A stretch of 57,197 bases of DNA, counting the filler, from Dugesia japonica (Eukaryota): assembly GCA_001938525.1 (NCBI GenBank). It is 5 parts of 5 records of this genome, joined end to end, with 100 filler letters (N's around TTAATTAATTAA, not from the genome) between each part and the next. Parts side by side here need not be neighbours in the genome. Positions count along the whole stretch, not along the records: positions 1 to 9,951 come from MQRL01607486.1; 4 more parts are not named here. The stretch is one strand, 5' to 3'. The translations under genes were made by a program, and so were the position numbers. The notes below the pieces were generated by a model. That model did not search any database. It was not told the origin of the DNA and saw only the letters and a list, made by a program, of their open reading frames with translations. Positions 1 to 31,926 of the stretch are shown here, in pieces (position 1 is the stretch's first letter; each line of letters begins with the position of its first letter).

Positions 1-122
1 TTTTTTTTATAATAAAAAACATGTATTATTAGCATATTACTTATAAAATATTTAATAAATAACAAAGAATTCATTTCAATAAAAGACATTAATTTTTTTA
101 CAACAAGAACAAATAAATATTG

Positions 123-470
123 TCAAGTATAATGTGGGATTTTCAACCATAATAAACAGTGTTGACTACATGTAGTTGTAAATGTATCTTGATATCGAAT
201 TTTATTGTAGACTATTGGCTTCAATATTTTCGATAAGTGTGACACCAACATTGATAGATAATATAATGCTAATGGATCGAATACTTGTATTTGAGCAGGT
301 TTATTGTAAACAGCTATCCAATGTTCTCCACCTAGATTTGATGCATGAGTATTGATAATTAAGGCATTGTTTACTGGGAAATATTTTGCACGTTTATCTA
401 ACGCATAAACACCTAATCATGCTGATCCAAGCCACTGTGATGCAATCAGATCAATCTGAATAGTACTATT
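123..470 (-). pseudogene. Polinton/adintovirus adenain-like cysteine protease (PRO), one internal stop
   Basis: Manual translation: STIQIDLIASQWLGSA*LGVYALDK...LIINTHASNLGGEHWIAVY...QVFDPL...RYQDTFTTTCSQHCLLWL. Catalytic GEHW, FD, Q and C motifs of the adenain family are present. Confidence 0.85.
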
Positions 471-499
471 AAAATAAAAAAAATCATTAATATAATAAC

Positions 500-1439
500 A
501 CTTACTGGTTGGCTGAACCATTCCCCAGGGCAATTGGATCTCCAGAGGTTCATACACTCTTATCCAGTTCCATTGTACCAGTGTACGGTGAAATACATGA
601 ATAGATGTTAATAATTCTTTGCTGTAAATATCTGTGCATGGCATACATAATTTTTTGATGATAGATTGCCGAATTGGGGTTTAAATTGGTATTTTAATTC
701 GGAATCCATCACAGTCTTTCCTGAACCAATTTTCTGGTCTGTATAACCACATTCGTTGTTCTTTAATGGCCTTCAATGCATCTTTTAATACCATTTGTGT
801 TTGCTTAACACAATGTGCACACTTATCTTCCAATTGATGTACTGACAGCGAACAGGTTATATGGGTAATGTGATTACAGCTTTCTTCGGATCTTGGTGTC
901 CGGCTTCCCTGGTACTAGATCGTATAGCATGTAGTGTCTTTCATAGCCTTGATTGCAAGTGTTCGACGCATTTGATTATCTAAACCAAAAGATACAACTT
1001 TAATTTCTTGTGATATAGTAACTGATTTATCGTTAGTCATAGATAATGTTGTTTGGTCTTGAGATAGTCGATTAATTTTTGGTGTCTTAGCTATTTTAGG
1101 CATAACTACTTTATCTGAAAAATTCAATTCCTTGGTAGCTAGTGCAATATTTTTAGTGTCCGTGTTTTCGTTGCCGATTTTAGTATGAAACTCCTGACGT
1201 GAAACCAAGCTCTTTCATTTCTCTTTCTTTTCTTCGTTTGTCTGCATATTTTAATGCGCCATCTTTCAATAATCTCGTTATTTATTGCAACTCTGTTTCT
1301 ATCTTTTCATCGTCTTTTGGTTGCATGTCCGTTTTCAGTTCTGAATTTACATCTTTCTCCGTTAGTTTCCATTCCCCATCTTCTTCAGACTCAGCGTCCT
1401 CGCTGAGACTTCTTTTCCTTAATAATGATTCTAAACCAC
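500..1439 (-). pseudogene. Extension downstream of integrase: acidic/low-complexity linker plus second copy of an unknown Cys/His domain
   Basis: ORFs 915..1208 and 417..644 joined in frame by IKAMKDTTCYTI*YQGSRTPRSEESCNHITHITCSLSVHQLEDKCAHCVKQTQMVLKDALKAI...FHRTLVQWNWIRVYEPLEIQLPW. Confidence 0.6.
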
Positions 1440-2686
1440 TCCATGGCGGAGAGTCAACTGGTTGAGACCATAATACTTACCAGTCCCATACTATTAATAT
1501 CATATGGAAATTCTCAAAAGCTCGAGTGAGAGTTTCGTAATAAATACTGATACAACGTTCCATAAGGTGTGTATTTCGTCTTGTTCCAATGGTACTTGAA
1601 TTGTTAGCTTGTCATGCATTTTCTTACATCGTTTTCTACTGAGCTCGTCTTGTTGCAACAACCCAAGTCTGCGACCAGCGATTTCCCACAATGCTGATTT
1701 CAAAATTGATTGCATTTTCCGTATGCATGTAAGGCAACTTGCCTCGATTAGAGTTGGTGAGATTGGGCATGTTATCCGAGAGAAGTGGGCACAACAGTTT
1801 TCTGGTGCCGGTGTCTGTGTTCCTCGTGGGATTATAGGATATATTGTCGTGGTACCCAATGCTTTAACTCGATGGCTTAACTGGCTTAATACGAATACTG
1901 GGATTGATGATTTCCCGAGTATCATCATAGCTTGTTGTGATCGTAATGGGTAACTATGCGATATATTTAACTCCAGATTTTCTGATTTACGTGGCCTACC
2001 TGGCCCTCTATGTTCCGTCGCGGTGGTTGCAGTACTTGCGGTTGGTGCGATTTCTTCCGTCATTGCTGCTTTTTTGCATAGGTTGGCGTGGTATATTTTT
2101 TGTTTCTCTAATAGGTTTCCCTTCCTTCGAACTTTGAGATTGGTTTCAGTCACTTCGATTACTTCATATGGTCCTTGCCATGATCCTTTTAATTTCGATG
2201 TAGTGTCAACACAAATGTCTGGTAAATTGATCAATACTATGTCGCCCTTTTTAAATGAATGTTGCATTGCCGTTTTATCGTGCAAATCCTCATAGCTTTC
2301 GTGGTAAAATCCTACATTCTTCTTGGCCTGTTTCCATATTTTCAGCATAGTTTCGTTAAAATTTGCAGCAAAGTTTGTTTCATCCTGGTATTGAGTTATA
2401 GATAGCTTCCTACCATACATAAGGATGCACACTTATTCGATATGCGAATAGACATAGTTGGATATGTATATCCCATTTATTTTGTTCCTTTTGAGCATAA
2501 CTGGATAGCATATTGATCAAGGTTTTATTAAATCGTTCCGTCAGTCTGTCCGCTTTTGGATGATAAGGTGATGTCCGTAATTGATGTATCTTGAGGAAAC
2601 TTGATATTTCTGCCAGTATGTTGCTCATAAAACTTTTTCCTTGATCGGTCAATATCTTTTTGGGTATACCATATCTGGTGAAAAAT
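1440..2686 (-). pseudogene. Gypsy integrase (N-terminally truncated rve core, GPY/F domain), AT-hook and first copy of the unknown Cys/His domain
   Basis: RYGIPKKILTDQGKSF...TSPYHPKADRLTERFNKTL (D..E core); FKKGDIVLI...WQGPYEV (GPY/F); RGPGRPRK AT-hook. ORFs 2410..2709 and 1500..2432. Confidence 0.9.
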
Positions 2687-4200
2687 TGGAGTGAATTGCA
2701 CGCCTCCATTTAACCGTAACATTGAGAATTTCCGTAACATTGGTTCAACTCCCAATGCCATTCGTTAGGGAAATGTTATCTATGAACCATCTGTCATGAT
2801 GTATTGTGGTCCGAATACATTAGAGCAATTTATGATATTTGGTTTATAACCCAATGGTGATATTATTCGAGTAATTGGTTGTACATAACTTTTCTCATTG
2901 TTGTGGATGATTTCTATTTCATTATAACAATATTTTGGATTAGACGGAAACTCTGTGTCCACGGCCTTGCATTTGTTTAGGTACATTACTTCGCCTACTA
3001 CTCGACCAAATTGTCCTTTTTCTAGAGGAAGTAACGGACGACACAATCTGGATTTGTAACTGCCATTGCTAACTTTGTCTTCAGTATTTCCTTATTCAAT
3101 GTACAGTCATTCTGGATAAGATCGTGGTACATTCGTCCGATGGTATCCTGCATCCGATGGAATAAATTGTCTTTTCTATTATTTGCATATAGATGTAGTT
3201 TGATATCTTGGGACATCACTGCGACTTGCGCTGTTTTTATCTGATGTTCTGATACGAATATCCCTTTATAGTTTGTTTTGTATACTATTTGTTCACATTT
3301 AAACATAGAATTTCCTTTGATCAATCGGATGGTCTCATCCTGTTCTGAGGACATTAGCACCGTGGGAGTTGTGTGTCATTGCTGATTGTATGATTTCAGA
3401 CCTGATGTTATCGTTTCTTTAAAATTATCTATCCTATCCTTTAGATTACCCTCTTTTGGCGCTTGATCAAGAGGAACTATGGCTCGTTGTCCTTGGTATT
3501 CATTGAACATAGCTTCTTTTAGGTGAGCTAACCTGCAATCCTGATGGTCTACTTTGTATGTCAGTGTTGATGTACCGGTATTACACGATCCATCAGGTGC
3601 TTTGCAGTATGACCTTCCTTTCATAGTTAAATCCTGGGCATCGAAAAATGCTTCGTATTCCTTAAGCTCTACGGTATAAGTTTCAATTGCTACCGCATAT
3701 TGCCATACTTTTTCTCGTATCGTGTATGTACAATATTCACAGTTACCTTTATGTGAAGATATACTTCCTGCTGCTTCTATCAGCTGGTCGATTACATATC
3801 CTTTTTTGGCGATAACCTGAGTCCTATGTTTGATGGTAATTTTACCTGTTGTAAATCCTTCATCGTATTGTTTTCATGTTAGATGTACGGGATATCTCAA
3901 TGTTCTTGGATCGATTATCGAAGTATAACAGTGTTAACCAAGATGAAATATGAACGTCTTTGCCGTTACTATACATTTACGTACTTGGGCCTTATAATAA
4001 TCGGACTCTTGATACAGGTGGTAAATGGAATTATGACGGAGTGATATTTTCTCCGGGTTTGCGTCTGGACATTCCTCGATAAATACTAATGAGAATACTT
4101 CCTTCCCAACTTGTATCCCATCGCAGTCATATGCTAATATGGCTTCACTTCTGCCCATCATTAAGAATAATAAGAGTATTGTAGTGGTTAATGCTTGCCA
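2687..4200 (-). pseudogene. env: Chuvirus-like glycoprotein (class III fusogen) env, C-terminally truncated
   Basis: Hydrophobic signal LTTTILLLFLMMGRSEA then ILAYDC..FSL..IEEC; C..DGSC; DCTLNKEILKTKLAMA; GEVMYLNKCKAV...CYNEIEI...YVQPITRII...NCS..GPQY. These resemble chuvirus G-type retroelement envelopes. ORFs 3934..4644, 3376..3624, 3022..3360, 2780..3046. Confidence 0.8.
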
Positions 4201-7200
4201 TGAGTTTTGGCGAGGCCCACGTGTCCATCCATTCTCGATCTCATTTAACTGATCCCGTACAATCCTGATTACTCTAGTTGCATTTTCATGAGATGGCTGA
4301 GGCTTAGGGTATATGGGCTCAATAAACTTTTTCCATCTCCCATGCTGCTTTATCAATGGCACTATTTTGTTCTGCATTAGATCCACTATCGGTAATTTGC
4401 TGAGGATGAAGTTTTTTGACGGCTTGCTTCTAACAATTGATAAATGTGTTTGGTTAATCAAATGGGCTATGGATACTACTATCCTTCCTTTCGTTGGCGG
4501 ATCTTGTAATAACTCATACATTACTCCTTCTAAAGTTATCTCTTGTGCCATGACTCGTACCTTTAGTGGCAGGGAATTTCTTAATGGCTGCTTCGATTTC
4601 CTTAGCCTGTGGTCTGAGACCATTTGATAGTTGAAATTTCCCAATCCATATTTTTAGCTCTGTATACAACATTAGCAATAATTGCCGTATGACCACTTTG
4701 GTTGGCATGTCATCATCGTCGAATTTTCGTGGAATTTCTCTTGTGATACCGTTGCTAATCGCTTAGTTTGATGGTTTATTGATGTTGCTAATCGTTTTTA
4801 TTTTAATGCTTCCTTCTCCTCCGGATTTCCTGGGGGTTTTGTTCTCGGTCTGCCTCTATTGCGAGGTTCAGTNATTGTTTCTGCATCCACTNTGGTGCGC
4901 GTTGGGTTTGGTGGCGCTTCTTCCTCTTCTGTCTCTATAGGATTTTCCATTTCTAAATGGTGATTTGTATCTATTAAGTCGTCCATGACTGAAGATGGCA
5001 ATTCTTTTGCTATTCTACTTAATATTTGCGATAATGGTTGTTCTTCTAATGCATCTTCTTCGTCTAAATGTACTTTGCTAGGATCGTATTTCTTGCTTCA
5101 AGTTGGCTCTTTGGCTTTTAATTCCTCACTTTTTCTAGTTGGAGGTGAGTATTTTGTGATTTGTAACTCATTCTCGTCTTCTGTTAACTCGTCTGCTGAT
5201 GAAGATCCGAATATTTCACGTTACAATCTTGGCTTGTTTTAGGGGTTTCTTTTGGTTCTTGAGACGTTTCAATACTTCTTGATTGATCTGTGGTAGGTCT
5301 CAATATTTGGCTAGACCCTAGTTGTTTTTGGTGCTTATAGGCTTTCAACATACTCGATCACTCCCCCATTATTGGTCTTGTTTTGTCTGCTGCCTTGTAA
5401 GGGTCTCCTAATTCTGGAAAAATCCATAACGTATTGGGTTTAACTAAATTTATTTTCATTAGTCCAATTGGGGTGGTATCTCCCACTATTCCGTCTTCAT
5501 CCAGGAGTTTATAAGGTGGCTTAAATGGTAACTTGTCTCGTAAGTGCTTTATCGTGTTATTTACTGGTATCTTAATTGTGATTTTGTCCCCCTGCGGATT
5601 GATTATTCGGAATTTGACCTCTAATGGAGTGGTTTGTCCAATCTCGGCTTTCCATTATTTAACCAGGATTTTATTAAACTGAATTGGATCCCATATGTGT
5701 GACACTTTGACAGCCATGATTAATCGTCGCTGTTTTCTAAGATCATCTACCACCAGATCTTGTTGTAAGACTATATTCGATCGACGTATGATTTCTGGTT
5801 TTAATAACTTATCGCCTACTAGCAATTCGAATAATTTTGGTAAATTGTCTTCCGGCTTTTCATCTTTGAATGGGGTGTTGGTCAAAGCCACTACCATTTT
5901 CACTCGTTGTTTACTTAGTTCTTTTTTAGAGAGCTTGGCTCTTGCGAATACTAATGGGTGTATCTCTTCTACATAATTTTCCACTACTTCTCTGGCTTCC
6001 TGCTTCCATTTATTAATGTCAATATTTCTTCAGCATACTTCTGTCTAATCATGAGCCATTGATTCTCAATTTCCTCCGGTATTTTTAGCCCATCGTATAT
6101 GTTATATATATGTTATATTAATTATCTTATTATATTATTATTATATTAACGTATATATTATATTAATTATATGCATTATCATCTAATAAATCTCTCGAGG
6201 TAACTTCTCCTTCTCTATCTGTACTCAGTTAATCATTTCCTACACTTTACGCTACTACTTCTCTTGCCGGCATTTGCCGCATCTTTATCATGTTGCATTT
6301 ACCCTCTCTTCTCTCTAATTGTTGTTTGAGAAAATCGTTACGCGTCATCAATAACTGCTTCCTTTCCTCCTTTGTTAGTTTGTCTTTCTTTCCTAATACT
6401 GTGGAAAGTATCTTTATTTTAATAGGTTTTACTTCTTGTTTATATAGATATTCCATCTCTCTCATGATTTCCGATGCCGATCTTCCGGTTTTTGTTATCC
6501 ATACGTCATAGTCGATACCCGGGTGTTTATCCAATATTACAATTTCAATTTCTTCTCTTGGTTTTACCCCAAATCGTATAGATGTCTTTTTCTGGCATTA
6601 AAATCTACTATAGCACTTGGAGTACACACGTAATTATCAGTTATGCATGGATAGCCTGCTTGATTAAGTGCCGATTCCAGATCTTCTACCATTAATCCCG
6701 TGAGTGTCAGTTTCATGTTTCCATCTGGATTATATACCCATACTTGGAAATCTGATAATCCCTGGTTGGATATTACCCAATCATAATGCACTGGTAACCA
6801 TTCTGTCTAATCGCTTTCAAAATTAGTGACCAGTTTTATAACTTCTAACAACTCTACTAATCGATTGGTCAACTTAAAGTATACATTCCTCTTTATTGTA
6901 TCATGGAGTTTCTGAGTGGCTACAAGTATCTCAACAATTCGAGCTAAGGATAATCGGGATGCTTTATTTTGTTCCGAGTCGGGATAGTCAATTACTTTCA
7001 CCTTCTCAAATCGTTTTCGTAAGTAGTTTTGAGCCTTGGTGGGAACTATTTCTTTTATAAATGTTTCTTCGAGATTATGATATAACTCGTCTGTTTCTAT
7101 TTCTTGAATTGTAATTTGTGGCCTGAACACCAATCCCCAATTTATCAATTTGATTACTGTAGTTTCATGGGGTCGTGTCCCGTAATAAATTAAATTCCTA

Positions 7201-7613
7201 TCATCTGGAAGAATATTGATTCCTATATTACCTTTTTGCCATCTGTGTCTATTCCATTTTCCATTCCATTGTTGCTGATCGGTAAATGTTGGTAATTCGA
7301 GAAATGGGTTTACCGTCATACCTTTGATACTGTTTACTTCGCTCCATTTTATTTCGTTAAGTGCTTCTTTCAAGTGTCGTACTGTCAATCCCTTTAGTGG
7401 TAGTTTTAATCATTTCGGAATGACCTCTGGGTTATTATGCCATATATATTGAATTTCGAATTCATAATCTTCTATATGTTCGTAATCTTCTAACTTAGTT
7501 TCTCTATAAAGCTCGGCGATGTAATCCAATATTGTTTTCTGCCAGTTAGCTTTTACTTTTACGTGTACTTGTGGGTGCTGGTATAATTGAAGTAACTGAT
7601 TCATCACTCGTCT
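4201..7613 (-). pseudogene. Accessory polyprotein region between gag and env with about three ubiquitin-like domains and an AT-hook
   Basis: ORFs 7614..8057, 7410..7607, 6807..7388 and 6564..6791 share one frame separated only by single stops. Ubl-like segments at ~7110-7460, ~6530-6750 and ~5410-5625. RGRPR at ~4850. Confidence 0.6.
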
Positions 7614-9341
7614 TTATCCGGTGGTTGTCGTTGATGCTTCTATTGTCCTATAGATGATTTCGTTGGTCCACTCGAATTCTGGTGATGTAATCAGTATTCG
7701 TTTCCGAGTGTCTTCCATTTCGATAACCTCCGTTGTTTCATCATGTTGGTTATAAATTTGTCTATATGTTCTGACCATATTACATTGATTCTTGTGTGGT
7801 TCATTTAGCAAGTTTCTTTTTGCTAGTCTTTCCTGCTGTACTTGCAAGTCTTGGTTTTGCCACTTTAGCCAATCATTTTCCTGTTGAACTTTATGGTACA
7901 CGTTGTTGAAAGTACTTTGAAGCACTCCGTTGACTTGTCCCTTGTTTTGGTTTACTCGTTGCCTTAATCTCTCATTTTCCTGCATTAGATTATCCAAATT
8001 TGTAATCTGGTTTCGATTATAATTTGTTTGGATTTCGTTTGGACATTCTTTTGCCATATGCCCTCTCCTGTTACACTTATAACAGCATGTTTCTACATTG
8101 AGGTTGGTTCTCTTGCAGTAAGTACAGAATCGATTGTTGTTATTATTATTGCCTCTACTTCTTCAATCTCGGGCAATATGCCCCCGTCTTCCACAGGAAT
8201 CGCATTGTATATCTCTATTATTTTGGCAGTTATTTCGTGGTGCATTAAATCCTCCACCATTTCCTCGGGGGTAGTTAGGTCTATCATTCCTGTTATTCCG
8301 TTCTTGCCCTAGGGTCAGGGTTTTCATCATGGATTGTGTGTTAGGTATCAAATCCGATATCCGCGGTGTAGTTTCCTCTGTCTGTCCTTTTACTTTGAAT
8401 ATCCGTTCTGATGGTCTATCTGCTACAATTCGCAATGTGTCCAGAGCGTCCTGTAGAGTCACTGGCTTACTCAATTTTACCATTAGTTTGGCGTTCTCGT
8501 CGCGTAATTCATTTAAGAATATAGCTAACACTTAACTGTCTTCCAGTTTATCTCCTGAGGCTAATTTGCAGTGCCTTTTGAGTTCCATCATATAAGCTTG
8601 TGGGGTTTCCCCCCGCTGTTGTTTTTGCTTCCTCGTCCCAGCCACAGGTTTTGGCATACATTTCGTAATTTTGGATAAATTCATCCAACTTTTCTGGTTT
8701 TCCGCTAAAATATTCGCCATCGAATTTTATTTTCCACTCCGGTTGATGGTTTTCAGTTTTGGTTGTCATATTGAACTCGATTTTCGGATTTTTGTTTATT
8801 GTTGAGGGTGTCTCACTTCCTAAGTCTCCTGGTTTTATTAACAATGAGTCGATGTTTTCCTGATTATAAGTTGTTAGTTTGATGATGTCTGATTCCTCTA
8901 ATGTATCGCTTATTCTACTTGATCGGTTACTAACTACTGGGGTTTTACTGGAGGTTGTTTTCGGGTTAGTTTTGTTTTCTTTATAACTTGGACTACGGTT
9001 TGAACTGATGGTTTCTAATGTTTTGGTTCTGGATAAAGAGGTTGATTTGTCGTCTTCTGGTTTCTTGAGCAAAAAGTAAAGAAAAAATAAAGTGACGATT
9101 GTTTGGTTTTCTTTGATGACCTGTGTCGTGTAAGTTGGTTTTCCTTTAGAATTGAGCCTGGAGTAGATATTCCGGATGTATTAGACCTTGTAAAAGGTTT
9201 TCTATTTTCTGAGTCTGAATCTATTTTGTCCGAGTCCAGCTTGTTGGTTGCCTTTTGTTTTTCGGTTTTGGCTTTGTAATACTTGTATTTTAACTCTCTA
9301 GAATAAAAATTTACTTCTAATTGTCTTTGCTTAGGAGGCAA
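7614..9341 (-). pseudogene. gag: Retroelement gag (capsid-like region plus CCHC zinc knuckles)
   Basis: FSGKPEKLDEFIQNYEMYAKTCGWDEEAK; QRGETPQAYMMELKRHCKLA; CDSCGRRGHIARD; CYKCNRRGHMAKEC. Confidence 0.85.
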
Positions 9342-9409
9342 TCACTCATTTTCCTGATTTTAACTTACTTTAATATCATGCTGCTCCACCCTGTCATCAT
9401 AGCCCCATA

Positions 9410-9951
9410 ACCATCTTCCTTAATTTTTTCCTTTTTATTTTCTTTAATTAAGTCTTCCTTTAATCTTCCTGTAATGCTTCCTTAATTTCTTCCTAATTAA
9501 TGCCAGGTTATCAATTCCTAAATGTGGGAGTACCCATTTTTCTGTAGTATAGGTGAACTCTTCTGGCTTTCTTTTTTTTCTTCCTTTTAATATGCCGGGG
9601 TAACAGTGCACACTTTTCTTAAATTTATATAGAGTTATCGAGAGTTTTCTGAAGGATCGGTGGCCCCGTTTGGAGTACGCTTTGCGTGCAGGCGAACGCT
9701 TCCGACTTTTCCTCCTTTAATGCTTCCTCTAATCAGGCTTTCATTAGTGTGCTTAACTACGTGGCCTTCTTTTAACATGCTGGTTAATGTACTTAAGACT
9801 TCACGTATCTTCTATCCTTGCGTAGGCTTCCTTTAATTTCTTCCGATGTTTTCCCTCTCGTACGCAGGCTTCCTTAATTATGCTTCCTTATTTCCCGACG
9901 TGGTCTACCTTTAACGTACTGGTTAACGTGCTTAGGCCTTCACGTGGTCTT
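9410..9951. repeat. Degenerate direct repeats in the putative 5' leader of the large retroelement
   Basis: Recurrent CTTCCTT(T)AAT and CTGGTTAA(T/C)GT(A/G)CTTA.G.CTTCACGT units at ~9780 and ~9920. Confidence 0.5.
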
Positions 9952-10051
9952 NNNNNNNNNNNNNNNNNNNNNNNNNNNNNNNNNNNNNNNNNNNNTTAAT
10001 TAATTAANNNNNNNNNNNNNNNNNNNNNNNNNNNNNNNNNNNNNNNNNNNN
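9952..10051. other. Artificial contig-joining spacer (also at ~24558-24657, 35823-35922, 48282-48381)
   Basis: N-run, TTAATTAATTAA (stops in all six frames), N-run; four such ~100-bp occurrences. Confidence 0.95.
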
Positions 10052-11317
10052 CAGCAAATCATGTAAGATTAAAATTATGCACAGTAAATATAGTTTCACT
10101 ACACAATGTACTCAACCGGTTGCATGAATAATGTGAATATTATTCACATTTTCAATTTATATGGAATTTGGTTGTAGCTTCATTAAGTAACAATATGAAG
10201 AGCTCCTTAATTCAACAAATAAAAGAAAGACGCACAAATTTACTCAATGTCATAAAAAATCTTCATAAAGGAGATCAAGCCCAAAAATNATCTGAGGCTA
10301 GATATTATATCTGGTCGCTAACTAAACTAGCTTTGGTAAATTTAATTGTGTATTTTATCCTTTGGATGTTATCCTTCCCAGCTGAAACTACATTCTTACC
10401 ATTTTCAAGTGATGATGATGATGAAGAAACCATAATGTGTGAAGACTAACCTTTGACCTTGACATTACAGGAGCAGCTAAGCATGGCCATAAATAATGAG
10501 ATAAAAATAACAACAGCGCCAAAATAAATCGAAACGCTAACGATTACACAAAAATTGAAAAGAAATTTCTATATTTGAGGAAGACTGCACACGTAGTACC
10601 AACTTGAACTTGATAAACGATTTTCTTTTAACTGTTTTCTCATCTAGTAAAGAAGCTGAACGTGCTTCCTCTTCTTCGGAAATGCTATATATATTAAAAA
10701 TTCGATCGTTTTTGAATGACGGAACTTTAAGCAATTTGTGTTTTACAGGCTTATAAATCAATAAATATTTTTTATGTTTTTTCATTGTTTTTTAATTTCA
10801 AATGAATTGATTTTATATATTACTTGTTGTTTTCAATACCAGTATTCAAATTCTGGTCCGGTATTGGATGCTCAACTGATAATATTGATAAATAAAATAG
10901 TGACAATTTATTGNAAATATCCTGACAATATTTTCTAGAAATTATAATAAAATTTTATTCATTAAGTGTTTTGAAAATTTCATGAAATTCTGATTATTTG
11001 CCAGACAATTTTCAATTTTTGTTTCTACACAAGATGGTAAATAAATACCGTCATATCGAAAAATAAATAAAATATAATTAATTTGTAATACTATTTATAT
11101 TTTTACAATAAATTTAAACAAGAAATATTTGAAAATATCTATAAAAAAGAGAAATTTATTTCATTTATNNNNNNNNNNNNNNNNNNNNNNNNNNNNNNNN
11201 NNNNNNNNNNNNNNNNNNAGAGAAATTTATTTCATTTATCGTTGCAAAATTGAAATAATTTTTACTATAAATATTAATATTAATTGGAAATTATATTGAA
11301 ATTCTCTTTATTTATAG

Positions 11318-11545
11318 AAATTTCAAAGTTACTGTTACTAGACAAGATAAAATAACCATTGATATGGATGTCAGTTCAGAGAATACTATCCAAAGTTTAA
11401 AAGAGAATATCCAAAGATCATGGAATAAACCAATAGAACAACAAACTTTAATGTTCAGAGGTGAAAAACTGGAAAATAATAAAAAGTTATCTGATTATGG
11501 AATTGTTGAGAAATGTTTAATTTCTTTATTTCCAAAAGTATCAAA
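11318..11545 (+). CDS. Host exon encoding one ubiquitin-like domain
   Basis: tttatAG acceptor and GTgag donor; 228 bp, phase 2-2; NFKVTVTRQDKITIDMDVSSENTIQSLKENIQRSWNKPIEQQTLMFRGEKLENNKKLSDYGIVEKCLISLFPKVS. Confidence 0.85.
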
Positions 11546-12500
11546 GTGAGATTTATTTCTATTTATATATTTTTATTTATTTATTTTGATTTANNNNNNN
11601 NNNNNNNNNNNNNNNNNNNNNNNNNNNNNNNNNNNNNNNNNNNTATTTCCAAAAGTATCAAAGTGAGATTTATTTCTATTTATATATTTTTATTTATTTA
11701 TTTTGATTTATTTATTTGATTTATTTATTTAACTTTATTTATTTNNNNNNNNNNNNNNNNNNNNNNNNNNNNNNNNNNNNNNNNNNNNNNNNNNNNNNNN
11801 NNNNNNNNNNNNNNNNNNNNNNNNNNNNNNNNNNNNNNNNNNNNNNNNNNNNNNNNNNNNNNNNNNNNNNNNNNNNNNNNNNNNNNNNNNNNNNNNNNNN
11901 NNNNNNNNNNNNNNNNNNNNNNNNNNNNNNNNNNNNNNNNNNNNNNNNNNNNNNTCTATTTATATATTTTTATTTATTTATTTTTATTTATTTATTTAAC
12001 TTTATTTGTTTTCAGTTTATTTATTATTATTTTTGGAAAACGAATTAAGATACGTTAACAAAATATATAAAATCTATTGAGTGCTTTCTAACCTCCGGTC
12101 GTGGTGAGCGGATCAATAAATGATATATTTTAATTTCTCACTCACTTGTGTGATATTTTCGAAGTAATTCACTGAAAATCTCAAATATCTTTCAATGATT
12201 TTCATTATGGTTGATGCGAGATAACTTTGCCGATAATTTTCGTAACAAATAGTGAGTTTGTGGTGTCTCCTTTACTGATTCCGTATTTTTTTTCTTGTAT
12301 AGTGTGCTCCAATGATCCTCGTAATGTTTTCAATTTCAAGAGCTCTATTTGGGCTATTATCTACTTATTATTTGATTAGTATCTAACCTTTCTTATTCGA
12401 CTGTGAATTTGTAAGCTTTTTATCAATAGTTAAAGTTGTTGTTTGAATCACAGTTGAGATTGGACCTTGTAAATATGATATTGTCCAAAAAAGGATAGTT

Positions 12501-13340: not shown

Positions 13341-13494
13341 GGTCAATTTCCACAAAAGATTTATTCACAAAACTAAACTATATTCAACACTATTTGTTCA
13401 TTCAAACAAATCAAAATTCTACGTTTTAATTGGTGATCATTTTTTTTAAATATTATAATTTAAACGAAACTTTAACTTTATTATTAAATCGTCA

Positions 13495-13981
13495 TTTAAA
13501 ATTTAAAACAAAATAATCATTTGTTATTAAATTTCCATTCAAAATTTCAAACAAAAGTAATCATTTGTTAATTGAATTTCTATTTAAAATTAAAACAAAA
13601 ATAATCATTTGTTAATTGAATTTTCATCCAAAATTAATAACAAAAATAATCATTCGCTATTAAATTTTCATTCAAAATTTCAAACAAAAGTAATCATTTG
13701 TTAATTGAATTTTCATCCAAAATTTAAAACAAAATAATCACTTGTTATTAAATTAATATTTAAAATTTAAAAGAAAAATAATCATTCGCTATTTAATTTC
13801 CATTTAAAGTTTAAAACAAAAATAATCTTTCGTTAATTGAATTTTCATCCAAAATTTAAAACAAAAATAATCATTCACTATTAAATTTTCATATAAAATT
13901 GAAAACGAAAATAATCATTCGCTATTTAATTTCCATTTAAAGTTTAAAACAAAAATAATCTTTCGTTAATTGAATTTTTAT
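13495..13981. repeat. ~39-40 bp minisatellite
   Basis: AAAATAATCATT(T/C)G(T/C)TA..AATTT(T/C)CAT..AAAATTTAAAAC repeated about 12 times. Confidence 0.9.
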
Positions 13982-14559: not shown

Positions 14560-15020
14560 ATGGAACAATATTCGAAAAACGATTTGTGGAAAAACTAAAT
14601 TGTGCATTTTTGATCGGCCATCTCCTCAAACTGTTACTGAATATTTGAAGATGTGTTTCCAATGAATTCGATATCTGAATCGCGAAATGATGTAGATTTT
14701 CATCAATGAATCGCAAACTGAATAACTGGATTTGAATGACACCTTGTTATATGTACAAGTGAAAGTAGTTGATAAAGTTGGAAAGGATTTGATTGAAGCT
14801 TCTGATGTAATAACTAACAACTATAGGTTTCATTCTCTATTTAGTGATGTCTTTCTGTCATTTAACCATTTTAAAATAGATGGTGGAAATAGAACTTATA
14901 TTCAAAAATCCTTGATTGAAACTATATTAAATTACAATGTAGACAGTAAGAATTATTTTCTTACAGCAATGGGATATGGAGTAGAAGCAGATAGAAAAAA
15001 ATCGATTAAATGATCTAAAC
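14560..15020 (+). pseudogene. Polinton major capsid protein (PY/hexon-like), 5' part
   Basis: CGKTKLCIFDRPSPQT...LDLNDTLLYVQVKVV...FHSLFSDVFLSFN...IETILNYNVDSKNYFLTA. Confidence 0.85.
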
Positions 15021-17819
15021 GGTTAGTTACTGATAAACTTTCTGAAAAGTGAATTAAAGTCAACAAAATTTTATTTATGAAATTTCAAATCTTCAAATCT
15101 TAAAAAACTATTTTTGAAAGGTTGAATATTTAAACAAAGTTGTTTAAATATTTTTTAAAAAAATTCTTGAAATCTTTTTCAGCATTTTGTTCTTAAAACT
15201 TTAAATTTTACATCCCCCTCGATTAAAAGAATTTTTTAAACTTTTCTACGTTCCTTTCTAGCACTTTTCCATTTGTATTTCGTAAACGATTTCTTCTCTC
15301 ACATCCTTTCTTTCTTTCTTCCAGTCGCATGTCATTGGTGTATTCCACTGCGAATTACATTTTCTTATAATATTAGAGTTTGCTAAATTTTTTATGGCCG
15401 TATCTATTTTTTCTTCTAGAGTCATGGGTTGTCTCCAAGGCTTCGTATTTATTGGATTACCCTTTGTCACTATTATGTGTTCTGCCACCCTTGTACATCC
15501 GAAATCCCAGTTATCTGCTATGAATACTCGACGTTGTTCTATTACCTTTTCTAGTTTCTCGTTTCGTTGTTTCATCAAAATTCTTAAAGTTCTCTGTTCT
15601 CTTTCAACATCCTCAATTTTCCAACCAAACCTTGCGTCTATTTTGCAGATCCACTGTTCATTCTCATGCTCCTTTGTTTCTTTCTTTAAACGGTATCAAA
15701 ACTGGCGTTGCATGTCTATTCCTCCAACAAGATTCGGACTCATTTCTTTCACTACGGTAAATTGCACTGTTTCCGATCTCCACTTCTACATATATCTTGC
15801 CCGCAAGGTTCATTCTACTATTATTTGCACATTTTAACACGTCATCAGTTTCTCTCAGCTTGACATTTGTCAGACTTCTAAATATATTTCGGCTCATCAC
15901 GTTTATCTTTGCACATGTGTTCAAAAAGGCAGTCTTTATATCTTCCTTGAATTCTTACTTCTACACTGGGCCTACCTTGCATTCTATCTTAATTTATTTG
16001 TACTTGTTTATTCTCTTCTAATATCATTATTTCTCGTTTCTTTCATTATCTTGATATCTGTATTATACATATCTCTGTAATGTCTCTTTTAAAACGCATA
16101 AACTTTTCTGTCTACTCTTTCCTCTTTACTTTTATCTTTTATACTATTAATTAAACTACTTTTACTATACATATGTATATAGCGATCTGGATTGTTTTTA
16201 GTTCATTGCTCTAATCAACTCGACTTTGGATGGAGCTTGTCTAATTGGGGTGTCTTCTCTATAGCTGTTGGTCTCCTCATCGTAATAATAAATATTATCT
16301 CCTCTCTTTATGTACTCCTCATCTTCCTCTACCATTGCGTTTACATATCTATTGCCAGCTTTTTTTCCTGAATCCATTATTGGCTGATGTCCTCCCACTT
16401 TGTTTTTGGAATCTGTTATTATCTTCATATTTTCTGTTTGTTTCATCTCTTTGTCTGTATAGTGCTGCTTCGTTTCTTTGTTCGTTATTCTGCTGTCTTC
16501 TCTCATTAGTCCATTTACCTCTTTTCTCCAAATTAGTATAACATTGTTCTGTATGATGTCCATTTTTTCCACTTGAACATCTAATTTTGTCACAATTTCT
16601 TCTTATATGATTCTCTGATCCGCTTGCGTAACACATTCTTTTCTTTTCGGGACAACTTCTGTTGATATGACCTATCTTTTGACATAAACAACATGTAATT
16701 TCTTTTTTAGCTTCACGTTGAGTTCGGTTAACTCCTGAGAAACGTTTTTTTGCAATGCCTCTTTTTACTGCATTGGTATAACTCTCTATCGTATTTATAT
16801 TGTCCGTTTCTTTTAGGTCATCCTTTAGTTCATCATTTGTTTTTATTATTTCAAATATCTCTTTCGAGTTGGCTAATTTGCCTCCTTTAATTTTTATTTG
16901 CATCCTTTAATCGCGGCAACTATTATATATTAATTCTTTTGTCATCTCTTCTTTTTCTAGTTTGTGTGCAAAGATTTTATCGANCAGTGTTAAAATATTT
17001 TTCTTGTACACATAAACGTGTTCATCCGTTCTCTTGTGTTTTAAAGCTTCCTCCAAATCTTGTATGAGAGTAGTCTTTTTGTGGAACGCTTTCCTCAGTC
17101 GGTCCTCAAAATCTAATAATTCATCTTGGCATTCATATGCTTCTCTTAANNNNNNNNNNNNNNNNNNNNNNNNNNNNNNNNNNNNNNNNNNNNNNNNNNA
17201 TCGCGGCAACTATTATATATTAATTCTTTTGTCATCTCTTCTTTTTCTAGTTTGTGTGCAAAGATTTTATCGACCAGTGTTAAAATATTTTTCTTGTACA
17301 CATAAACGTGTTCATCCGTTCTCTTGTGTTTTAAAGCTTCCTCCAAATCTTGTATGAGAGTAGTCTTTTTGTGGAACGCTTTCCTCAGTCGGTCCTCAAA
17401 ATCTAATAATTCATCTTGGCATTCATATGCTTCTCTTAATTTTCGATCAATTAAGCCAATCACCAAGAGGTTTTTATCCTTTTTCTTTACACCAATACAT
17501 TCGAAGTATTTAGTGCAAGCATTGATAAACTGTTCAATATCGTCACCATGCCGGTAAATTCCAGGGTGTAGGGCTTCTCGAATGAGGTCCATTGAAGCGT
17601 TTGTCGCCATGTTAGTTACTGATCAACTTTCTGAATAGTCCATTAAAGTCAACAAAATTTTATTTATGAAATTTCAACTCTTTAAATCTTCAAAACTATT
17701 TTTGAAAGGCTGAATATTTAAACAAAGTTGTTTAAATATTTTTTAAAAAATTCTTGAAATATTTTTTAGCATTTTCTTCTTCAAACTTTAAATTGCAATT
17801 TCAATTTTTAATCCTTACA
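15021..17819 (-). mobile_element. Internally deleted Gypsy LTR retrotransposon inserted in the Polinton MCP
   Basis: LTRs 17610-17819 (TG..CA on minus) and 15021-15212; PBS-like TGGCGAC at 17603-17609; PPT ~15213-15228; 5-bp TSD TAAAC/TAATC; gag with CCHC (16349..17610), protease-like FLNTCAKINVM and the start of RT (SQWNTP). Confidence 0.9.
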
Positions 17820-18260: not shown

Positions 18261-18859
18261 TTACACAGTAATATCATTAGAGTTGAAAATATCAGTTCTC
18301 ACTCTAAGTTCATAAGGACATTGTTGTGTAAAGTCAAGTAAATGATATTCATGCGGGATTACTGTAGCATTATTGAACGATTCAATAAAAAATTGTCTGA
18401 TATTAGGATAGACCATCCTTGCTAAAAATTCAAGAACTGTTTGATCTCTCGGACTTTTAAGTATAACATTTAAATTATGTGTCTGATAGTTTCCTTCTTT
18501 ATGGAATAGATTTTGAGTAATGAATGTCACAGTCACATCACAATGCCTCGATATCTTTGTAAATAGTTTGTTAAATTCCTTTCTTTATTAGCTTCCTGGT
18601 ATAGATCATCAACAAAAATCTCATTACTTGGTGTCAATTTCTTGCTCCAGTTTTTGTCAAATCTCTTTACAATTTTCATTTTTATATCGCAAAATACTGA
18701 TTGAATCATCCGATGCTCCTCATCTGCACCTCTATGCCAATATATTTTATTGAATTTCGATTTGAATAAGTTTGATTTCAATCATTTACACACAAACAAG
18801 GCTTTTCCACTACCACTTGGTCCAACAATTTGATTTACAGCTTCATTTTTTAATTTCAT
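18261..18859 (-). pseudogene. Polinton A32-like DNA packaging ATPase
   Basis: Walker A IVGPSGSGK; Walker B EIFVDDL; FITQNLF; KSPRD; LLDFTQQCPYELRVRTDIF. Confidence 0.9.
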
Positions 18860-20230: not shown

Positions 20231-21299
20231 TTTGAAATAATGAATTAAAGATTCAGTTTATATAGGTTTTAGTACGGGTTTGTATTAATTAAATACATTG
20301 ATACGTTTAAACAATTGATTCTAGAACATTTTTATTGAAATTATCTAAAAATTAAATTAGTTTAAATAAAATTTAATTAATTTTAATTATAATGGTTAAA
20401 TTTATTTAATATGAATTATTATAGTTAAATTTACTGATTTTTCAATATAACTATTTATGTATAAGTTTTGGTGATTTTTAAGCTTGTTATTCGTACTCAC
20501 CGTAAAATTGTCTGTCGAATAGTATCAATTTCGATAAATTCTNNNNNNNNNNNNNNNNNNNNNNNNNNNNNNNNNNNNNNNNNNNNNNNGGCTGTACATA
20601 TTCGTTAGGAAGCATTTTTACCGAGATGATATTTTAACTTTGTACAGTCAATTTTTCATCTTGAATAAAATAATACCAAATTTGAGTCCATAGCTGTTAT
20701 CTGCGCACAGAATTCTGAGCACTAAACTCTAAATTTTTAAATTTTTTCACCACCAAACTTCATTTATTTCATCAAGTATTAACTTTGGCGATTTTAGGTT
20801 AACATATTTGGAATCAGCAAAAAGTACTCTATCGAATATACATTTTCTTGACCTATTTTAAGAAGAAAATATTTTTTCGAACAAATCCTGTGCAAAATAC
20901 TGGGAAAACCAAATATTATCGGGGTAAAATTACACAGAAGTCATTACAATTTTTTAAATTATATAGAAGTCACCAAAAATTTTATTGAAGTCACCGAAAA
21001 TTTTCAAAAATTGCATAGAAGTCTATGAAAATATAACAAAGTACTGATGTGTGTTTGTTCATTTTTATAAATTATGATCAAATATTCCATGAGAAACATA
21101 AATGCATTTGCAAATTTTTCATAATCTTTTTAAAAGAAATTTAATCTATTTAAAATTTGTAAGTAAATAATTAATTCATTTTTTACATTTTAAAGTGCGA
21201 ATATCTCTACTTATGCACCAAACTGCTTTGAAAACATGACAGATGCATTTTTTATATCATTACCATTCTAATGATATCAAGTTTGATGCCTATTAATTA

Positions 21300-22905
21300 A
21301 GAAATGGTACCAAAACTCCATTTTTAAAATATAAAGATATATTTGAGAGAGGTTCAAAATCTGCGAAACTTTATGGACTTCCTAAAGTTCATAAGAAAGA
21401 TGTTCCTATGCGTCCTGTTTTATCCTTGATAAAAATAGCTCAATATAAGGTTGCCAAACTGTTGAATAAGCTTATTAAGCCTTTACACAGATCTGAATTT
21501 GAGTGCAAGAATAGTTTTGAATTTTCATCTTTAATTTCTCATTATCCATTGGCTAGTAATGATTGCTTTACGGTCTCATTTGGTGTTGCAAATTTATTAA
21601 CTAATATTCCATTAAAAGAGACAATACATTTGTGTTGTGAAATATGGAGTGATTTTAATCCTAATAAATCTTCTTTAGATGATATAGCGTTTCATGATCT
21701 TTTAACCTTTGCAACATCAAATTTTCAATTTCTTTTTAATGATGAATGGTATAGACAGATTGATGGTGTGGTGATGGGATCCACATTAGCTCCAACATTA
21801 GCTTCTATTTTCTTGTCTAAATTAAAGAGTAAGATTAATGATTATTCTTCTGTTAAACCTCTAGTTTATAAACGTTATGTCGATGAAATTTTTCTTAATT
21901 TTGAAAATCACTCTCAAGTACATCTGTTTTTGGAGTATATGAATAACTTGCATCCAAATATAAGTTTTTCGGTTGAAGAAGAGATCAATTCAACTATTAC
22001 ATTTCTTGATTTGCTTATTGAAAGAAAGAATACTTCATTTGAAACAGAGATATATAGAAAGAAAACTGATACCGAGTTTTTTACTAATTCTGGCAGTTTT
22101 TATGACATAAAATATAAAAGTAATATGATTAAAGGACTAATTCATCGTTCTTGGTCTCTCTTNTCTACTTTAATCAAAGCAGACAAGAGTCTTAAAACAT
22201 TAATTGACTTACTTCATAATAATAGGTATCCTAAATTGTTTACGGACAAATTAGTTTATGAAACTTTAATTAAACTTAATAGTGACTTGTTTCGTGTTGA
22301 TATATCTGAAGTTGTAAAAACAGATCCTAAAATTGTTTTATCTTTACCTTATTCTGAGGGCTTTAAAAACTTTCGATTGAAAATGCTCTTAAGAATATTT
22401 TAAATATAAAGTTGGTATCTCAATCTCATAAGGTTATAAATATGTTTAATAATAAATCTATAACTCCTTTAGGCTTGTGCTCTAATCTGGCATATCAATT
22501 TAAATGTAAAGGATGTAACGTCACATACATTGTAGAGACTTTCCGTCATCTCTGCACCAGAGTTCAAGAGTATAGTCGAAATAGTAGTAATAGTAATATT
22601 GTTGAGCATTGGAGAAAATGTAGAAAATCAATATGGTGTTCTGATTTTAAAATCCTGTACAGTGGATTTAATAATTATTGGGAGAGAGTGATGTGAGAAG
22701 CTTTGTTGATAAGGGTATTAAATCCTAAAATTAATGTTCAGTTGACAGATTCAACATCGCTCTTAAAATTATTTTATTGATATTTTTCATTAAGATTGCA
22801 CAATTGAAATTCTATAATCATTTAAACTTTGTAAAAAGTTTGTTTTAATATTCTTTAATTGCCTGATGACGACGGCTATTCCATCGAAATTGATCGCAAA
22901 TAAAT
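21300..22905 (+). mobile_element. Penelope-like retroelement (RT plus GIY-YIG endonuclease), 5' truncated
   Basis: LYGLPKVHK..VPMRPV; QIDGVVMGSTLAPTLA; KRYVDE; ITFLDLLI; YRKKTDT; AYQFKCKGCNVTYIVET.RHLCTRVQE; terminal hammerhead. Confidence 0.95.
22859..22900 (+). ncRNA. Type I hammerhead ribozyme in the Penelope terminal repeat
   Basis: TTGC-CTGATGA-C-GACGG ctatt CCATC-GAAA-TTGA-TC-GCAA. Confidence 0.8.
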
Positions 22906-24007
22906 ATTTTTAAAAAATTTAAAAAATTTTTTTTCCTGTGCCGTTTTCTTGTATTGCATACATTTTTCGATACCAATCATTTAGACAATGTATAGGTAGT
23001 TTGTAATTGCCTAGTTAACAGTATCAAATTTAAGTCTTGGTGATAAAATCTTGAGGTTGGGCACGGTTTTTAAACTTAAAACCTTTAAATATTTAATTAC
23101 TCGTCACCTGAGATAGCAGTTATGTTCATCAAGGTTTTACGAGTCTAACGATAAAAAATCTTTTATTAGTTAATGTATATACTTGTTTTAATAGAGCTTT
23201 TTAAAATTGATGAATTTAGATGTTTCAGTGCGCCAATATCTACCTACTAGAGTGTTGCTCAACTTTCCCACGAAGGAAGCATTTTTCATCATAAGTACTT
23301 TATGAAATGTATAGATTGTTTTCAAGTATCATCTTAGTGATGGTGGTTTCAACTCATAAAATTGTAACCGCCCACCATAGAGCCAAATATNNNNNNNNNN
23401 NNNNNNNNNNNNNNNNNNNNNNNNNNNNNNNNNNNCTTTATAAGTGAGATACATTCTACTTTTAATTCACTATCACATCGTATAAAAATCTTGATGAGTG
23501 TAATGGAAAAGTTTTGATGGAGACGGATTTTTTAAAATTTTAAATCTTTAATAAACTTTTACCCTTACATTTGACTAATATTAAAATACCTTCACTGTAT
23601 TCATCATTTAATTGCGCATCCAACAATATCAAGTTTGACCAGAAAACACGATTTTAAATGGACTTTGATCTATAAAATTGATATGTACCTTTAGCCGTCA
23701 TGTTGAATGGGAAGGAGTCATTAGACAAATATGCTCGAGCTATCTCGAATAGGGTGGTTCGAGTTTCCAACTTTATGCACATCTGATAATATTTTGTTGG
23801 TATGATTGATAATTGTATCTTAAGTTCCAAAAAATTAATTTTTAGACTGGTTGTAAAATCTGGAAAATCAATATTAACTATTTAAAATTTTTAAATATTT
23901 CTTATTAATTTGTAACAAAGTAAACCATTGATTTTTGATTTATTAAATAATTGATACGTACATGTATATCATTTTTAGTTAAATATTTTATGTTTAAATT
24001 TATTTAG

Positions 24008-24235
24008 CAATGAAATACAAGTTATTGTTTATGTCGAGTCTGGTCGAAATANNNNNNNNNNNNNNNNNNNNNNNNNNNNNNNNNNGAATTTAAAATCTAA
24101 AATTCAACAAAAGATAAATATTGAAAATACCTACCTAACATTAGTCTATCAAGGTGAATTGTTGGATGATGACAAGACAATTAATCATTACGAAATTGAA
24201 ACATGTTCAGTTATTATTGCTCATCGCACCATAAG
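24008..24235 (+). CDS. Second host ubiquitin-like exon (probably same gene as 11318-11545)
   Basis: tttAG acceptor and AG|GT donor; 228 bp including an N-run; phase 2-2; NEIQVIVYVESGRN...NLKSKIQQKINIENTYLTLVYQGELLDDDKTINHYEIETCSVIIAHRTI. Confidence 0.8.
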
Positions 24236-26109
24236 GTTTCATTTAATATTTTGTATTAATTTTATAAATTTTTATTATTGGGTATTCAGTGTAGATTTTN
24301 ACTGTCTGATTTTTGTCTATCCATTTTATATGGAATATAATTTCAAAATAATATATGATAATAATAATAAAATGAAAAGTGCAATATTTTAAAATTTTTA
24401 TTTATAAAACATGTTTTGGATAAATATGTATTCATTATCAGTTACTGTTGTAAATCAAGAAAGAAAACTGTTTATAAACGGGCCAATAAAACCTGTTGCG
24501 CAATCAATTCAATAAGATTAAAATTTATAAGTGAGTATAAATAAATTTAGCTCCTTCNNNNNNNNNNNNNNNNNNNNNNNNNNNNNNNNNNNNNNNNNNN
24601 NTTAATTAATTAANNNNNNNNNNNNNNNNNNNNNNNNNNNNNNNNNNNNNNNNNNNNTTGTATTAAAGTTTTAAAACAAAATGATTGCCAGACTGATAAT
24701 ATTTTTCCGGCTTTGGATAGAGTCACATAGAGCATCAATTAGGCCACAATAGTATCATATCGAAAAGTAACTAATTTTGATTTTATTACGCAATTTGAAA
24801 TACAATTTGAAAGCATCTTTAAATAAATTCATATACAATTGAAATTCTGTTATATAACAAGATGTAATAAATATATACGAATCTGTGATGTCAATTTCAT
24901 CGCTATTCTGTTCTTTTGAAATAAAATAAACTCTGTACTAAAATCAGCTTCATAGCAAGATCATTTTTAGTCCTATGTGTGATTTAATTTTTGAGCCCTT
25001 CATATATGCAACTGAAAAAAATTGTTTACAAATTATGTTTCTTCGATATTCAAACATAGAAAATCAATATTATATATCGATATATTNNNNNNNNNNNNNN
25101 NNNNNNNNNNNNNNNNNNNNNNATTTTGTGCAAAGCTCCATGAGAAATACATTTTGTAACATTATTACTATATATCATTTTAAAAATAATTAAATATTCT
25201 ATTTAATTTATAAAAATAGAAATAATAATATTTTGAATTATTATAAATTATTAAAATATTGAAACCTTAAAATCTTTACCTTTGATGCTTTATTTCACCT
25301 GCATTGTTACGGTAACAGGTGAAATGTTTAATGACAATTAATAATTTTTGATTAATATATTATATTCCATAAATTTTGAAATATTTGTAAAAATATAATT
25401 ACTTTGTTTTCTATTTGTTTACTTTACATGAATGATTGATGTTTGTTTATGTTTATTGTTAATTTCTTTTCTAAATGCACGTAAACAATTTGACATTGTG
25501 ATGTTTTTGAAGAAAATTTAAAAAAAACAATTGATTTATTNNNNNNNNNNNNNTTTATTGATTGTTCTTTTAATTAATAGAAAATATTTTTATTCTTCAT
25601 AAATTCCATTACCCACATAACAAATTTTGTCTCACTCTAATAAGATTTCAATTATTTCTTAATTGCTGTACACACAGTTATTCCGACTCGGCCATTGAAC
25701 ATGAAATTCTCTTTCATTTTAAATAATAATAAACCAGTAAAATTAATTTTTATAAAGAAAATTGTTTTTTAAGTTGCGTTTATAACATTTGTTTGTTTTT
25801 TTTTTCTCAGAAAAATGCTATTTTTTAATTGTCCAATATTTATTAATCTTTGCTTTTATTTCAAAAACTAATATAAATTGAACACTATAATTAAATGACA
25901 AATTGAGTAATTTTTTTTTGTATTTATTTTCTTGCTATCTGATAATTAATTAATTTCGACCACATTCAACTTCATCGCTGTGAAAATTTTTTTTTCAAAT
26001 TTTTTGTTAATTTTGCAATTTCTTTGAAAAAAAAATAAAACAAATTAATGAACATTGAATTCATTAAAAAAATTCNNNNNNNNNNNNNNNNNNNNNNNNN
26101 NNNNNNNNT

Positions 26110-31315: not shown

Positions 31316-31533
31316 GCTACTGCATATATGAGACAAACAAAATATAAAGATGCAGAATTAGTCTATAAAGAAATAATTAATGAAGTTCACGAGCAATTTT
31401 GTGGAGAAATTGCAGCAAATAATAAACCTATATGGATGTTGGCAGAAGAGAGACAGCATGGTTTAGTTGGTGGAAATTTCAACACGCAAAGAGACGAGAA
31501 AGAATCGTGGGAAAGAATCCATAAAAAAAAATG
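31316..31533 (+). CDS. KLC: Kinesin light chain exon (TPR5 region)
   Basis: ttcAG acceptor; ATAYMRQTKYKDAELVYKEII...NKPIWMLAEER versus KLC ASCYLKQGKY..AE.LYKEIL...NKPIWMHAEER. Confidence 0.85.
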
Positions 31534-31926
31534 GTTAAAGTTTTTATTTACTTTATATTTAATAATATTTTTGTAATTAATATAATGTGTTGGAATAATG
31601 TTTCAAATCATTTAAGATACAGTGATTGAATTAATAATTATTTTATAATAATAATTAATAAATAATAATTAATAACACCTTAGTAAATCATGTATCGCAC
31701 ATTTTTTGAAATAATTTTTGAGCGACAAAAATATTAGCTTTGCGGACTCGTCAAAAAATTTATTATTATTAATAGTAGTATTATAATTATTATTGTTATT
31801 ATTATTATTTATTATAATTATTATTATTTATATTATTATTATGAATATTATGATTTATCAAATATGCAACAAACGATGGCAAATGTTTATTACAAAATAA
31901 ATAACGCCATTTAAAATAAAACTTTA

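Follow-up and report, generated by a model that had tools for sequence, protein, structure and literature searches.

What is the Cys/His domain that lies in two copies behind a Gypsy-type integrase in the flatworm Dugesia japonica, and what could such a domain do for the element that carries it? The window, by which we mean the whole stretch of 57,197 nucleotides that was analysed, had received an initial annotation made from the sequence alone. It proposed a tandem pair of unrecognised domains of about 150 residues in the place where chromoviruses carry a chromodomain, and suggested that they bind zinc and serve in integration targeting or chromatin reading.

Judged by its sequence, the element that hosts these domains belongs to the flatworm (Burro-like) type of Gag-Env-Pol Gypsy elements; it is decayed and present in many copies. 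All of its parts are on the minus strand, where the order from 9180 to 128 is Gag, an accessory region of about 3.4 kb, env, the C-terminal half of the integrase, GPY/F, a GRPRK motif, copy 1, a linker, copy 2, a spacer and a protease-like domain. Gag (7614-9180) has CCHC zinc knuckles (Pfam zf-CCHC, E 1e-4 and 0.01 at 8000-8200). The accessory region contains a possible ubiquitin-like segment at 5400-5654, with weak matches to Pfam UBL_UBAC1 (E 0.13) and to polyubiquitin (E 1), and a possible BCL2-like segment at 4230-4560, which was seen by eye only and found no support in Pfam, PDB or the Atlas, where the matches were unspecific. Between gag and the ubiquitin-like piece, about 650 accessory codons (5655-7600, minus) match no Pfam family, and a second GRPR AT-hook-like motif occurs in this region at 4843-4857 (minus), still ahead of env. 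In the 19 + 9 translated pieces scanned, which cover part of the frames, Pfam found no MATH, BIR or ankyrin domain. The env gene (2720-4200) is broken and codes for a fusion glycoprotein of the gB/chuvirus type, recognised by PF24664 in four pieces with E-values of 1e-7 to 4e-12.

At 2690-2790 this truncated env meets a truncated integrase. The PF24664 match breaks off at position 439 of the 653 in its profile, and about 100 nt further on begins the match to Pfam rve, which covers profile positions 57-102 of 102 (E 2.9e-5; integrase core, C-terminal half, 2400-2700). The stretch of some 100 nt between the two matches leaves no room for PR, RT and RNase H, which are absent here together with the C-terminus of env and the N-terminus of the integrase. 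We read the loss of PR-RT-RNase H as an internal deletion or an assembly join, and this copy of the element as a derivative; since it is broken and lacks these enzymes, it cannot move by itself. An 11-nt direct repeat occurs near the junction, on the env side, and related contigs are thin near 2736-2739; the junction could stem from a deleted family or from an assembly join. No LTR pair was found as a repeat by blastn of positions 1-10600 against the window, which stops about 130 nt past the protease-like domain.

The rest of the window contains other repeats and gene fragments. Single ubiquitin-like ORFs lie on the plus strand at 11271-11549 (Pfam ubiquitin, E 9e-15) and, by eye, at 23979-24392. 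Two fragments, at 14726-15013 (plus) and 18261-18584 (minus), have no Pfam match and look by eye like a Polinton capsid and packaging ATPase. A Penelope-like element at 21297-22696 (plus) consists of a reverse transcriptase (RVT_1, E 2e-6) followed by a piece that by eye resembles GIY-YIG, and a second such fragment is found near 42283-42735. Decayed Gypsy-like gag and integrase fragments are at 15258-17622 (minus), 44427-45208 (plus; rve, E 6e-11 at 44864) and 55606-56544 (minus). A segment at 31286-31576 (plus), resembling by eye the TPRs of kinesin light chain and without a Pfam match, is possibly a host exon. A 44-nt tandem array occupies 13439-13972, and paired gaps of 44 N flank TTAATTAATTAA at several places in the window, likely an assembly artefact.

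The integrase ends in a GPY/F region at 2130-2260 (GPY at 2174; Pfam MLVIN_C, E 0.03), and is followed at 1986-2006 by the motif GPGRPRK, which we take to be AT-hook-like. Copy 1 of the Cys/His domain (1868-1441) is in the same open frame as both and starts 102 residues after GPY, so that the position downstream of the two features is as initially described. Copy 2 lies at 953-525. Each copy comprises 143 residues, slightly fewer than proposed. Copy 1 was quoted with an ellipsis that hid a frameshift near 1556, and has in addition one stop near its end; copy 2, whose core spacing resembles that of a RING-H2 finger, contains two stops. The copies are indeed duplicates but they are not adjacent, as 487 nt (954-1440) lie between them. 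This charged, Cys-free linker of about 162 residues has a frame change near 1200 and one stop.

The alignment of the two copies that the initial annotation had proposed leaves no doubt about their relationship. It runs without gaps, with 47 of 143 residues identical when X is placed at the breaks, and its Smith-Waterman score of 228 was reached by none of 5000 shuffles (mean 30, maximum 73). Each piece of copy 1 also aligns significantly to copy 2 when taken alone (36/102 identical and score 172 for the larger piece, 11/38 and 62 for the smaller; 0/5000 shuffles for each), while the best chunk outside the copies among the 1518 six-frame chunks of the window scored 45. The proposed pattern C-x-H-x5-C-x10-C-x2-C occurs exactly twice in the six frames of the window, once in each copy, and never in 2000 shuffles of three 10-kb frames. 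The set of shared residues is larger than this pattern and includes, in copy-2 numbering, C26, H28, C34, C45, C48, C81, C106, H122, W128, W130, P142 and W143. Against an overall identity of 33%, six of the seven Cys of copy 2, two His and three of its five Trp are kept.

At the DNA level, no likeness between the copies was found by blastn. Over the first 102 codons, nucleotide identity at the three codon positions is 0.50, 0.60 and 0.36, and different codons stand behind 17 of the 36 identical residues; the pattern is flat in the last 38 codons (0.39, 0.47 and 0.47). The third codon positions have thus diverged the most, as is expected of an old duplication held at the protein level by selection. 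The tandem duplication is old and has been kept by selection.

The element is one of many. In four runs, 7950, 8110, 10994 and 1810 contigs matched positions 1-4860, covering all 30 bins, most of them with 90-99% identity. Longer contig pieces that are about 80-88% identical to the window span the boundaries between the GPY region and copy 1 (1792-2163), between copy 1 and the linker (1381-1749) and between the linker and copy 2 (880-1190), indicating that the order of GPY region, copy 1, linker and copy 2 is common to diverged copies. No contig bridging copy 2 to the protease-like domain was found among the matches listed, which represent 32 of about 29,000 pieces. The summed contig depth, which is not a copy number, is about tenfold higher over the protease-like domain than over the repeats. 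RNA reads were drawn from four runs, of each of which 6-25% was read. Of these reads, 8, 217, 30 and 19 fell on positions 1-2800; most were less than 90% alike, and almost all of them lay in the protease part or the integrase part. The RNA depth in these four runs was zero at 565-1316 and 1411-1974, with no reads on the Cys/His core of either copy. The protease part attracted reads from diverged copies in all four runs, and 14 RNA reads depart from the sequence of the window at 480, suggesting that the protease also sits in other contexts or elements.

The domain that follows copy 2, at 128-470 (minus), is absent from the initial annotation, whose coordinates miss it. It is in the same frame as copy 2, has one stop, and contains His, Asp, Gln and Cys motifs in the order of an adenain/Ulp1-like (clan CE) cysteine protease. 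The frame from 1199 to 128 has 3 stops in 357 codons, where the other two frames of the minus strand have 23 and 27, and we therefore read the end of the linker, copy 2 and the protease-like domain as one ORF. Pfam Peptidase_C5 matched the last 113 residues with E 0.0067 and 16.6 bits, which is under its cut-off of 21.3, and adenovirus protease chains matched with E 1.1. The order G-E-H-W, F-D, R-Y-Q, T-C-S is that of viral Ulp1-like proteases, and N-T, F-D, Y-N..R.Q and C...C motifs are common to the domain and the proteases of giant viruses. A viral scan for the G-E-H-W motif gave 34 loci, 33 of them resembling one protease family, and three of the four loci scanned passed Pfam Ulp1. A profile was built from 21 distinct members, leaving out one unrelated locus; after the motif used for selection had been masked, 9 of 1000 shuffles reached the score of the domain on this profile. 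A word-index search of longer proteins returned 37 candidates for this domain, none of them real, and in a contig scan one of seven stretches was confirmed, with no locus given. An adenain/Ulp1-type protease of clan CE is the likely identity of the domain.

Between copy 2 and this probable protease is a stop-free spacer of 18 codons (471-524, minus). A 3-nt deletion at 476, which preserves the frame, is found in 31, 28, 26 and 3 related contigs in the four runs. The spacer also looks like an intron, with a GTAAG donor at 505, a T-rich tract and AG at 466 and 456 (456-505, minus); this reading was set aside, as by hand the phase of the donor fits neither acceptor for the protease frame.

The description of the Cys/His domain as unrecognised has held up. 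It had no match in Pfam (19 + 9 translated pieces scanned) or NCBIfam, and its best E-values were 0.1 against PHROGs and 0.15 against PDB sequences; Pfam Tissue_fac (E 0.023) and phrog_18584 (E 0.1) were dismissed as noise. Word-index searches of longer proteins with the two-copy profile gave 1025 candidates, none at E<=0.01, and with integrase tail residues 100-295 gave 256, none of them real. HMMER over 1.84 billion representatives yielded no homologue, its sole match being to six stretches of a BspA-like repeat protein, taken as chance. Scans of viral, metagenome and prokaryote contigs found no relatives of the repeats, and an Atlas search with copy 1 had no usable match. The protein and contig libraries searched may contain no flatworm repeat proteins, and no positive control was available, so that these blanks are not proof of absence. 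A BIR domain has the pattern C-x2-C-x16-H-x6-C and a PHD finger the pattern C4HC3. Both were rejected for the repeats, in which the order of the ligands differs and for which neither family has a Pfam match. The structure prediction envisaged in the initial annotation was carried out with AlphaFold from 2-3 sequences and reached a pLDDT of 43 and 45, too poor to assign a fold or a metal site. These models have one moderately confident long helix at about residues 38-70, and Foldseek found for them no PDB match and no viral match at E<=0.001, a result that at such pLDDT carries little weight.

Zinc binding by the domain is plausible, given the conserved Cys and His residues, the CxH and CxxC motifs, and a tail with no clear signal or membrane segment. 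The 19-residue hydropathy maximum of the tail is 1.29 on the KD scale, compared with 1.52 for the signal of env. The lack of such a segment makes metal ligands likelier than disulfides, and the eight conserved Cys and His of each repeat would be enough for two zinc ions. That the cysteines are instead disulfide-bonded, and the repeats a secreted or surface domain, is suggested by the mildly hydrophobic stretch ahead of copy 1 that gives this maximum. We regard this as very improbable, with no clear signal peptide or membrane anchor to accompany it and with conserved His and CxH/CxxC motifs that suit metal binding.

Copy 2 reads C-x-H-x2-H-x2-C-x10-C-x2-C, and an origin from a RING finger was tested for this reason. 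Copy 2 has the spacing of ligands 3-8 of a RING-H2 finger; in copy 1 ligand 5 is absent, and ligands 3, 4, 7 and 8 are kept in both copies. Copy 2 also has a Cys 17 residues ahead of ligand 3, within the common range of 16-19. A viral scan for the spacing of copy 2, covering 6 of 64 parts of the collection, found at least 122 loci. Of 125 matches, 6 contained a stop and were left out; among the 119 used, 114 are full RINGs with an upstream CxxC, and most have the hallmarks of the family (Trp in 101, C-P in 115 and F/Y in 115). The first C-x2-C (ligands 1-2) and the Trp, C-P and F/Y hallmarks are all absent from both copies. Against a profile built from 113 viral RINGs, whose own members reach at least 42.5 bits, the copies obtain 4.9 and 16.4 bits; when everything but the ligands was shuffled, 708 and 442 of 1000 sequences equalled these scores. 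The repeats are therefore not members of the RING family; they resemble a RING-H2 finger in the spacing that copy 2 has for ligands 3-8, and differ from it also in the approximately 95 extra conserved residues that trail behind.

There is a weaker form of this idea, in which each repeat would retain in its N-terminal third a decayed RING-H2 finger with one zinc site left, and would serve as an E2-binding or E3-like module beside a deconjugating protease. The spacing of copy 2, which in viral sequences so regularly goes with a full RING, would fit such a descent, as would the four ligands common to both copies and the well-placed Cys of copy 2. We nevertheless consider it distinctly improbable, because ligands 1-2 and the hallmarks of the family are gone from both copies, because the profile scores are matched by so many shuffles, and because the low-confidence models place the last CxxC inside a long helix.

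The element itself is of a kind already known. In Burro/GYPSM1 of planarians, Gag is followed by accessory domains, among them Ubi/SUMO-like and BCL2-like ones, then by env and then by pol (PMC6431247). The cargo reported for Burro includes AIR1, Smc, MATH, BIR, ankyrin, BCL2, Ubi/SUMO, dUTPase and midasin-like domains, and has been linked to apoptosis and ubiquitination (PMC6431247). Our element shares with it, as far as the available text goes, the CCHC Gag, the long accessory region, a mononegavirus-like env between gag and pol and the integrase, and possibly also the order of the ubiquitin-like and BCL2-like segments, which here are weak or seen by eye. It differs in that this copy is devoid of PR-RT-RH and that neither BIR nor ankyrin turned up in its scanned pieces, and the portion of the Burro text at hand has neither a duplicated Cys/His domain nor an adenain/Ulp1-like protease (PMC6431247). 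The Gag-Env-Pol order with a gB-type env is also that of errantiviruses of nematodes, bryozoans and flatworms, and Smed_errantivirus_1-6, the Platyhelminthes elements with an HSV/gB-type env, have the same gene order as the element described here (PMC13524379). By eye, the env proteins of Smed_5 and Smed_6 have short motifs in common with ours, and none of the six Smed_errantivirus rows comes close to being identical to it (PMC13524379 and its supplement). What the accessible part of that source gives for the pol tails of these elements is the presence or absence of a chromodomain, with none in Smed_6 (PMC13524379).

Ginger1 transposases provide another parallel, with an Ulp1 or OTU protease behind a Gypsy-like integrase and a proposed action on the ubiquitin pathway (PMC2836005). 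Like our element they have, in the portion of that paper available to us, a protease of the clan CE type, sometimes along with a zinc finger, downstream of a Gypsy-like integrase that bears GPY/F; unlike it, they are DNA transposons with TIRs and without gag or env, and their C-terminal domains are Ulp1, OTU and PHD (PMC2836005). In our element, Pfam places the protease nearer to adenain, and the repeats do not belong to the PHD fingers. Neither the Cys/His domain nor its pairing with a clan CE protease was described in the literature searched, although the original Burro description, figure 2A of PMC6431247 or Repbase may mark the region. Thus the type of element is known, and the Cys/His domain appears to be new within it.

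The reading that we prefer, tentatively and with somewhat less than even confidence, is that the repeats are zinc-stabilised interaction domains which, together with the in-frame adenain/Ulp1-type protease, form accessory cargo acting on the ubiquitin or SUMO control of the host. What was directly observed is the duplication, the signature of selection, the position, the continuous frame through linker, copy 2 and protease, and the multicopy family. A Cys/His domain matching no known family, placed behind an integrase and ahead of what is likely a protease of the ubiquitin/SUMO type, suggests zinc-binding accessory cargo, for which the proteases of Ginger1 and the cargo of Burro with its links to apoptosis and ubiquitination, as far as their texts were available, offer a precedent. 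This argument from the theme of the family is one of guilt by association. The fusion of copy 2 to the protease as a fixed arrangement is weakened by the RNA reads that leave at 480, by the higher contig depth over the protease and by the status of such proteases as a core gene of Polintons.

The last three observations also bear on a further alternative, in which the repeats, the protease or both were taken from a Polinton-like element for building particles or processing the polyprotein, or in which the protease is an adjacent Polinton gene that is in frame by chance. An adenovirus-like protease is a core Polinton gene in the parts of the review available (PMC6431247); contig depth, not itself a copy number, rises about tenfold over the protease, RNA reads diverge at 480, and there seem to be Polinton-like fragments, seen by eye, elsewhere in the window. 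The join is however stop-free and in frame, variation in the spacer keeps that frame, and no relative of the repeats was found in viral contigs or beside the 34 viral loci of the G-E-H-W protease, and we consider such an origin unlikely.

The proposal that the repeats are a chromatin- or DNA-reading module tethered to the integrase, steering integration as a functional stand-in for a chromodomain, is rather doubtful, though it deserves more credit than an origin from Polintons. Integration targeting is possible since GPY/F, the AT-hook-like motif and copy 1 share one continuous open frame, in which copy 1 begins about a hundred residues after GPY; the copies are net basic (K+R 21 and D+E 14 in copy 2), and the conserved W-x-W...PW could form a pocket. 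A chromodomain sits in the same place in chromoviruses, but the repeats do not match it in sequence, and with 143 Cys/His-rich residues, mostly helical in low-confidence models, they would be a different kind of domain. Pfam scans of the tail pieces found neither a PHD finger nor Chromo after GPY/F, and the two flatworm errantiviruses in the part of the published chromodomain table available, Smed_6 and Pcro_2, are given as having no chromodomain. The post-integrase slot of such elements carries many unrelated types of cargo, so that position alone says little, and position and the AT-hook-like motif are all on which targeting rests. With the tail ending in a likely clan CE protease, cargo related to ubiquitin or SUMO is at least as well indicated as targeting.

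With the accessory-cargo reading in mind, one may imagine the following course of events. The eight conserved Cys and His of each repeat would bind one or two zinc ions, which would hold a mostly helical domain together. The tail would be made within the polyprotein and then either stay on the integrase or be cut off. The repeats may bring the protease or the integrase to partners in the host, and the protease would strip ubiquitin or SUMO from its targets or, alternatively, process the polyprotein. A bolder speculation, to which we give a low probability, joins this with targeting. According to it, the polyprotein in a family of flatworm retrotransposons with env would end in two new two-zinc domains and an adenovirus/Ulp1-type protease, all fused to the integrase, and this cassette would read, and erase, a chromatin mark or a ubiquitin/SUMO mark of the host at the target site, coupling the choice of target to de-silencing.

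This copy of the element is dead and the function of its tail is deduced, which limits the immediate value of the finding. Still, the unusual host-control cargo of flatworm Gypsy elements gains a new module, in the form of a duplicated domain that selection has kept beside an integrase and for which no relative was detected, and the combination of integrase, repeats and a likely ubiquitin/SUMO-type protease parallels that of Ginger1 transposases. A role in guiding integration would make the repeats a new alternative to the chromodomain, and recruitment of the ubiquitin/SUMO machinery, if that is what they do, would show how such elements may handle silencing in animals that are rich in stem cells.
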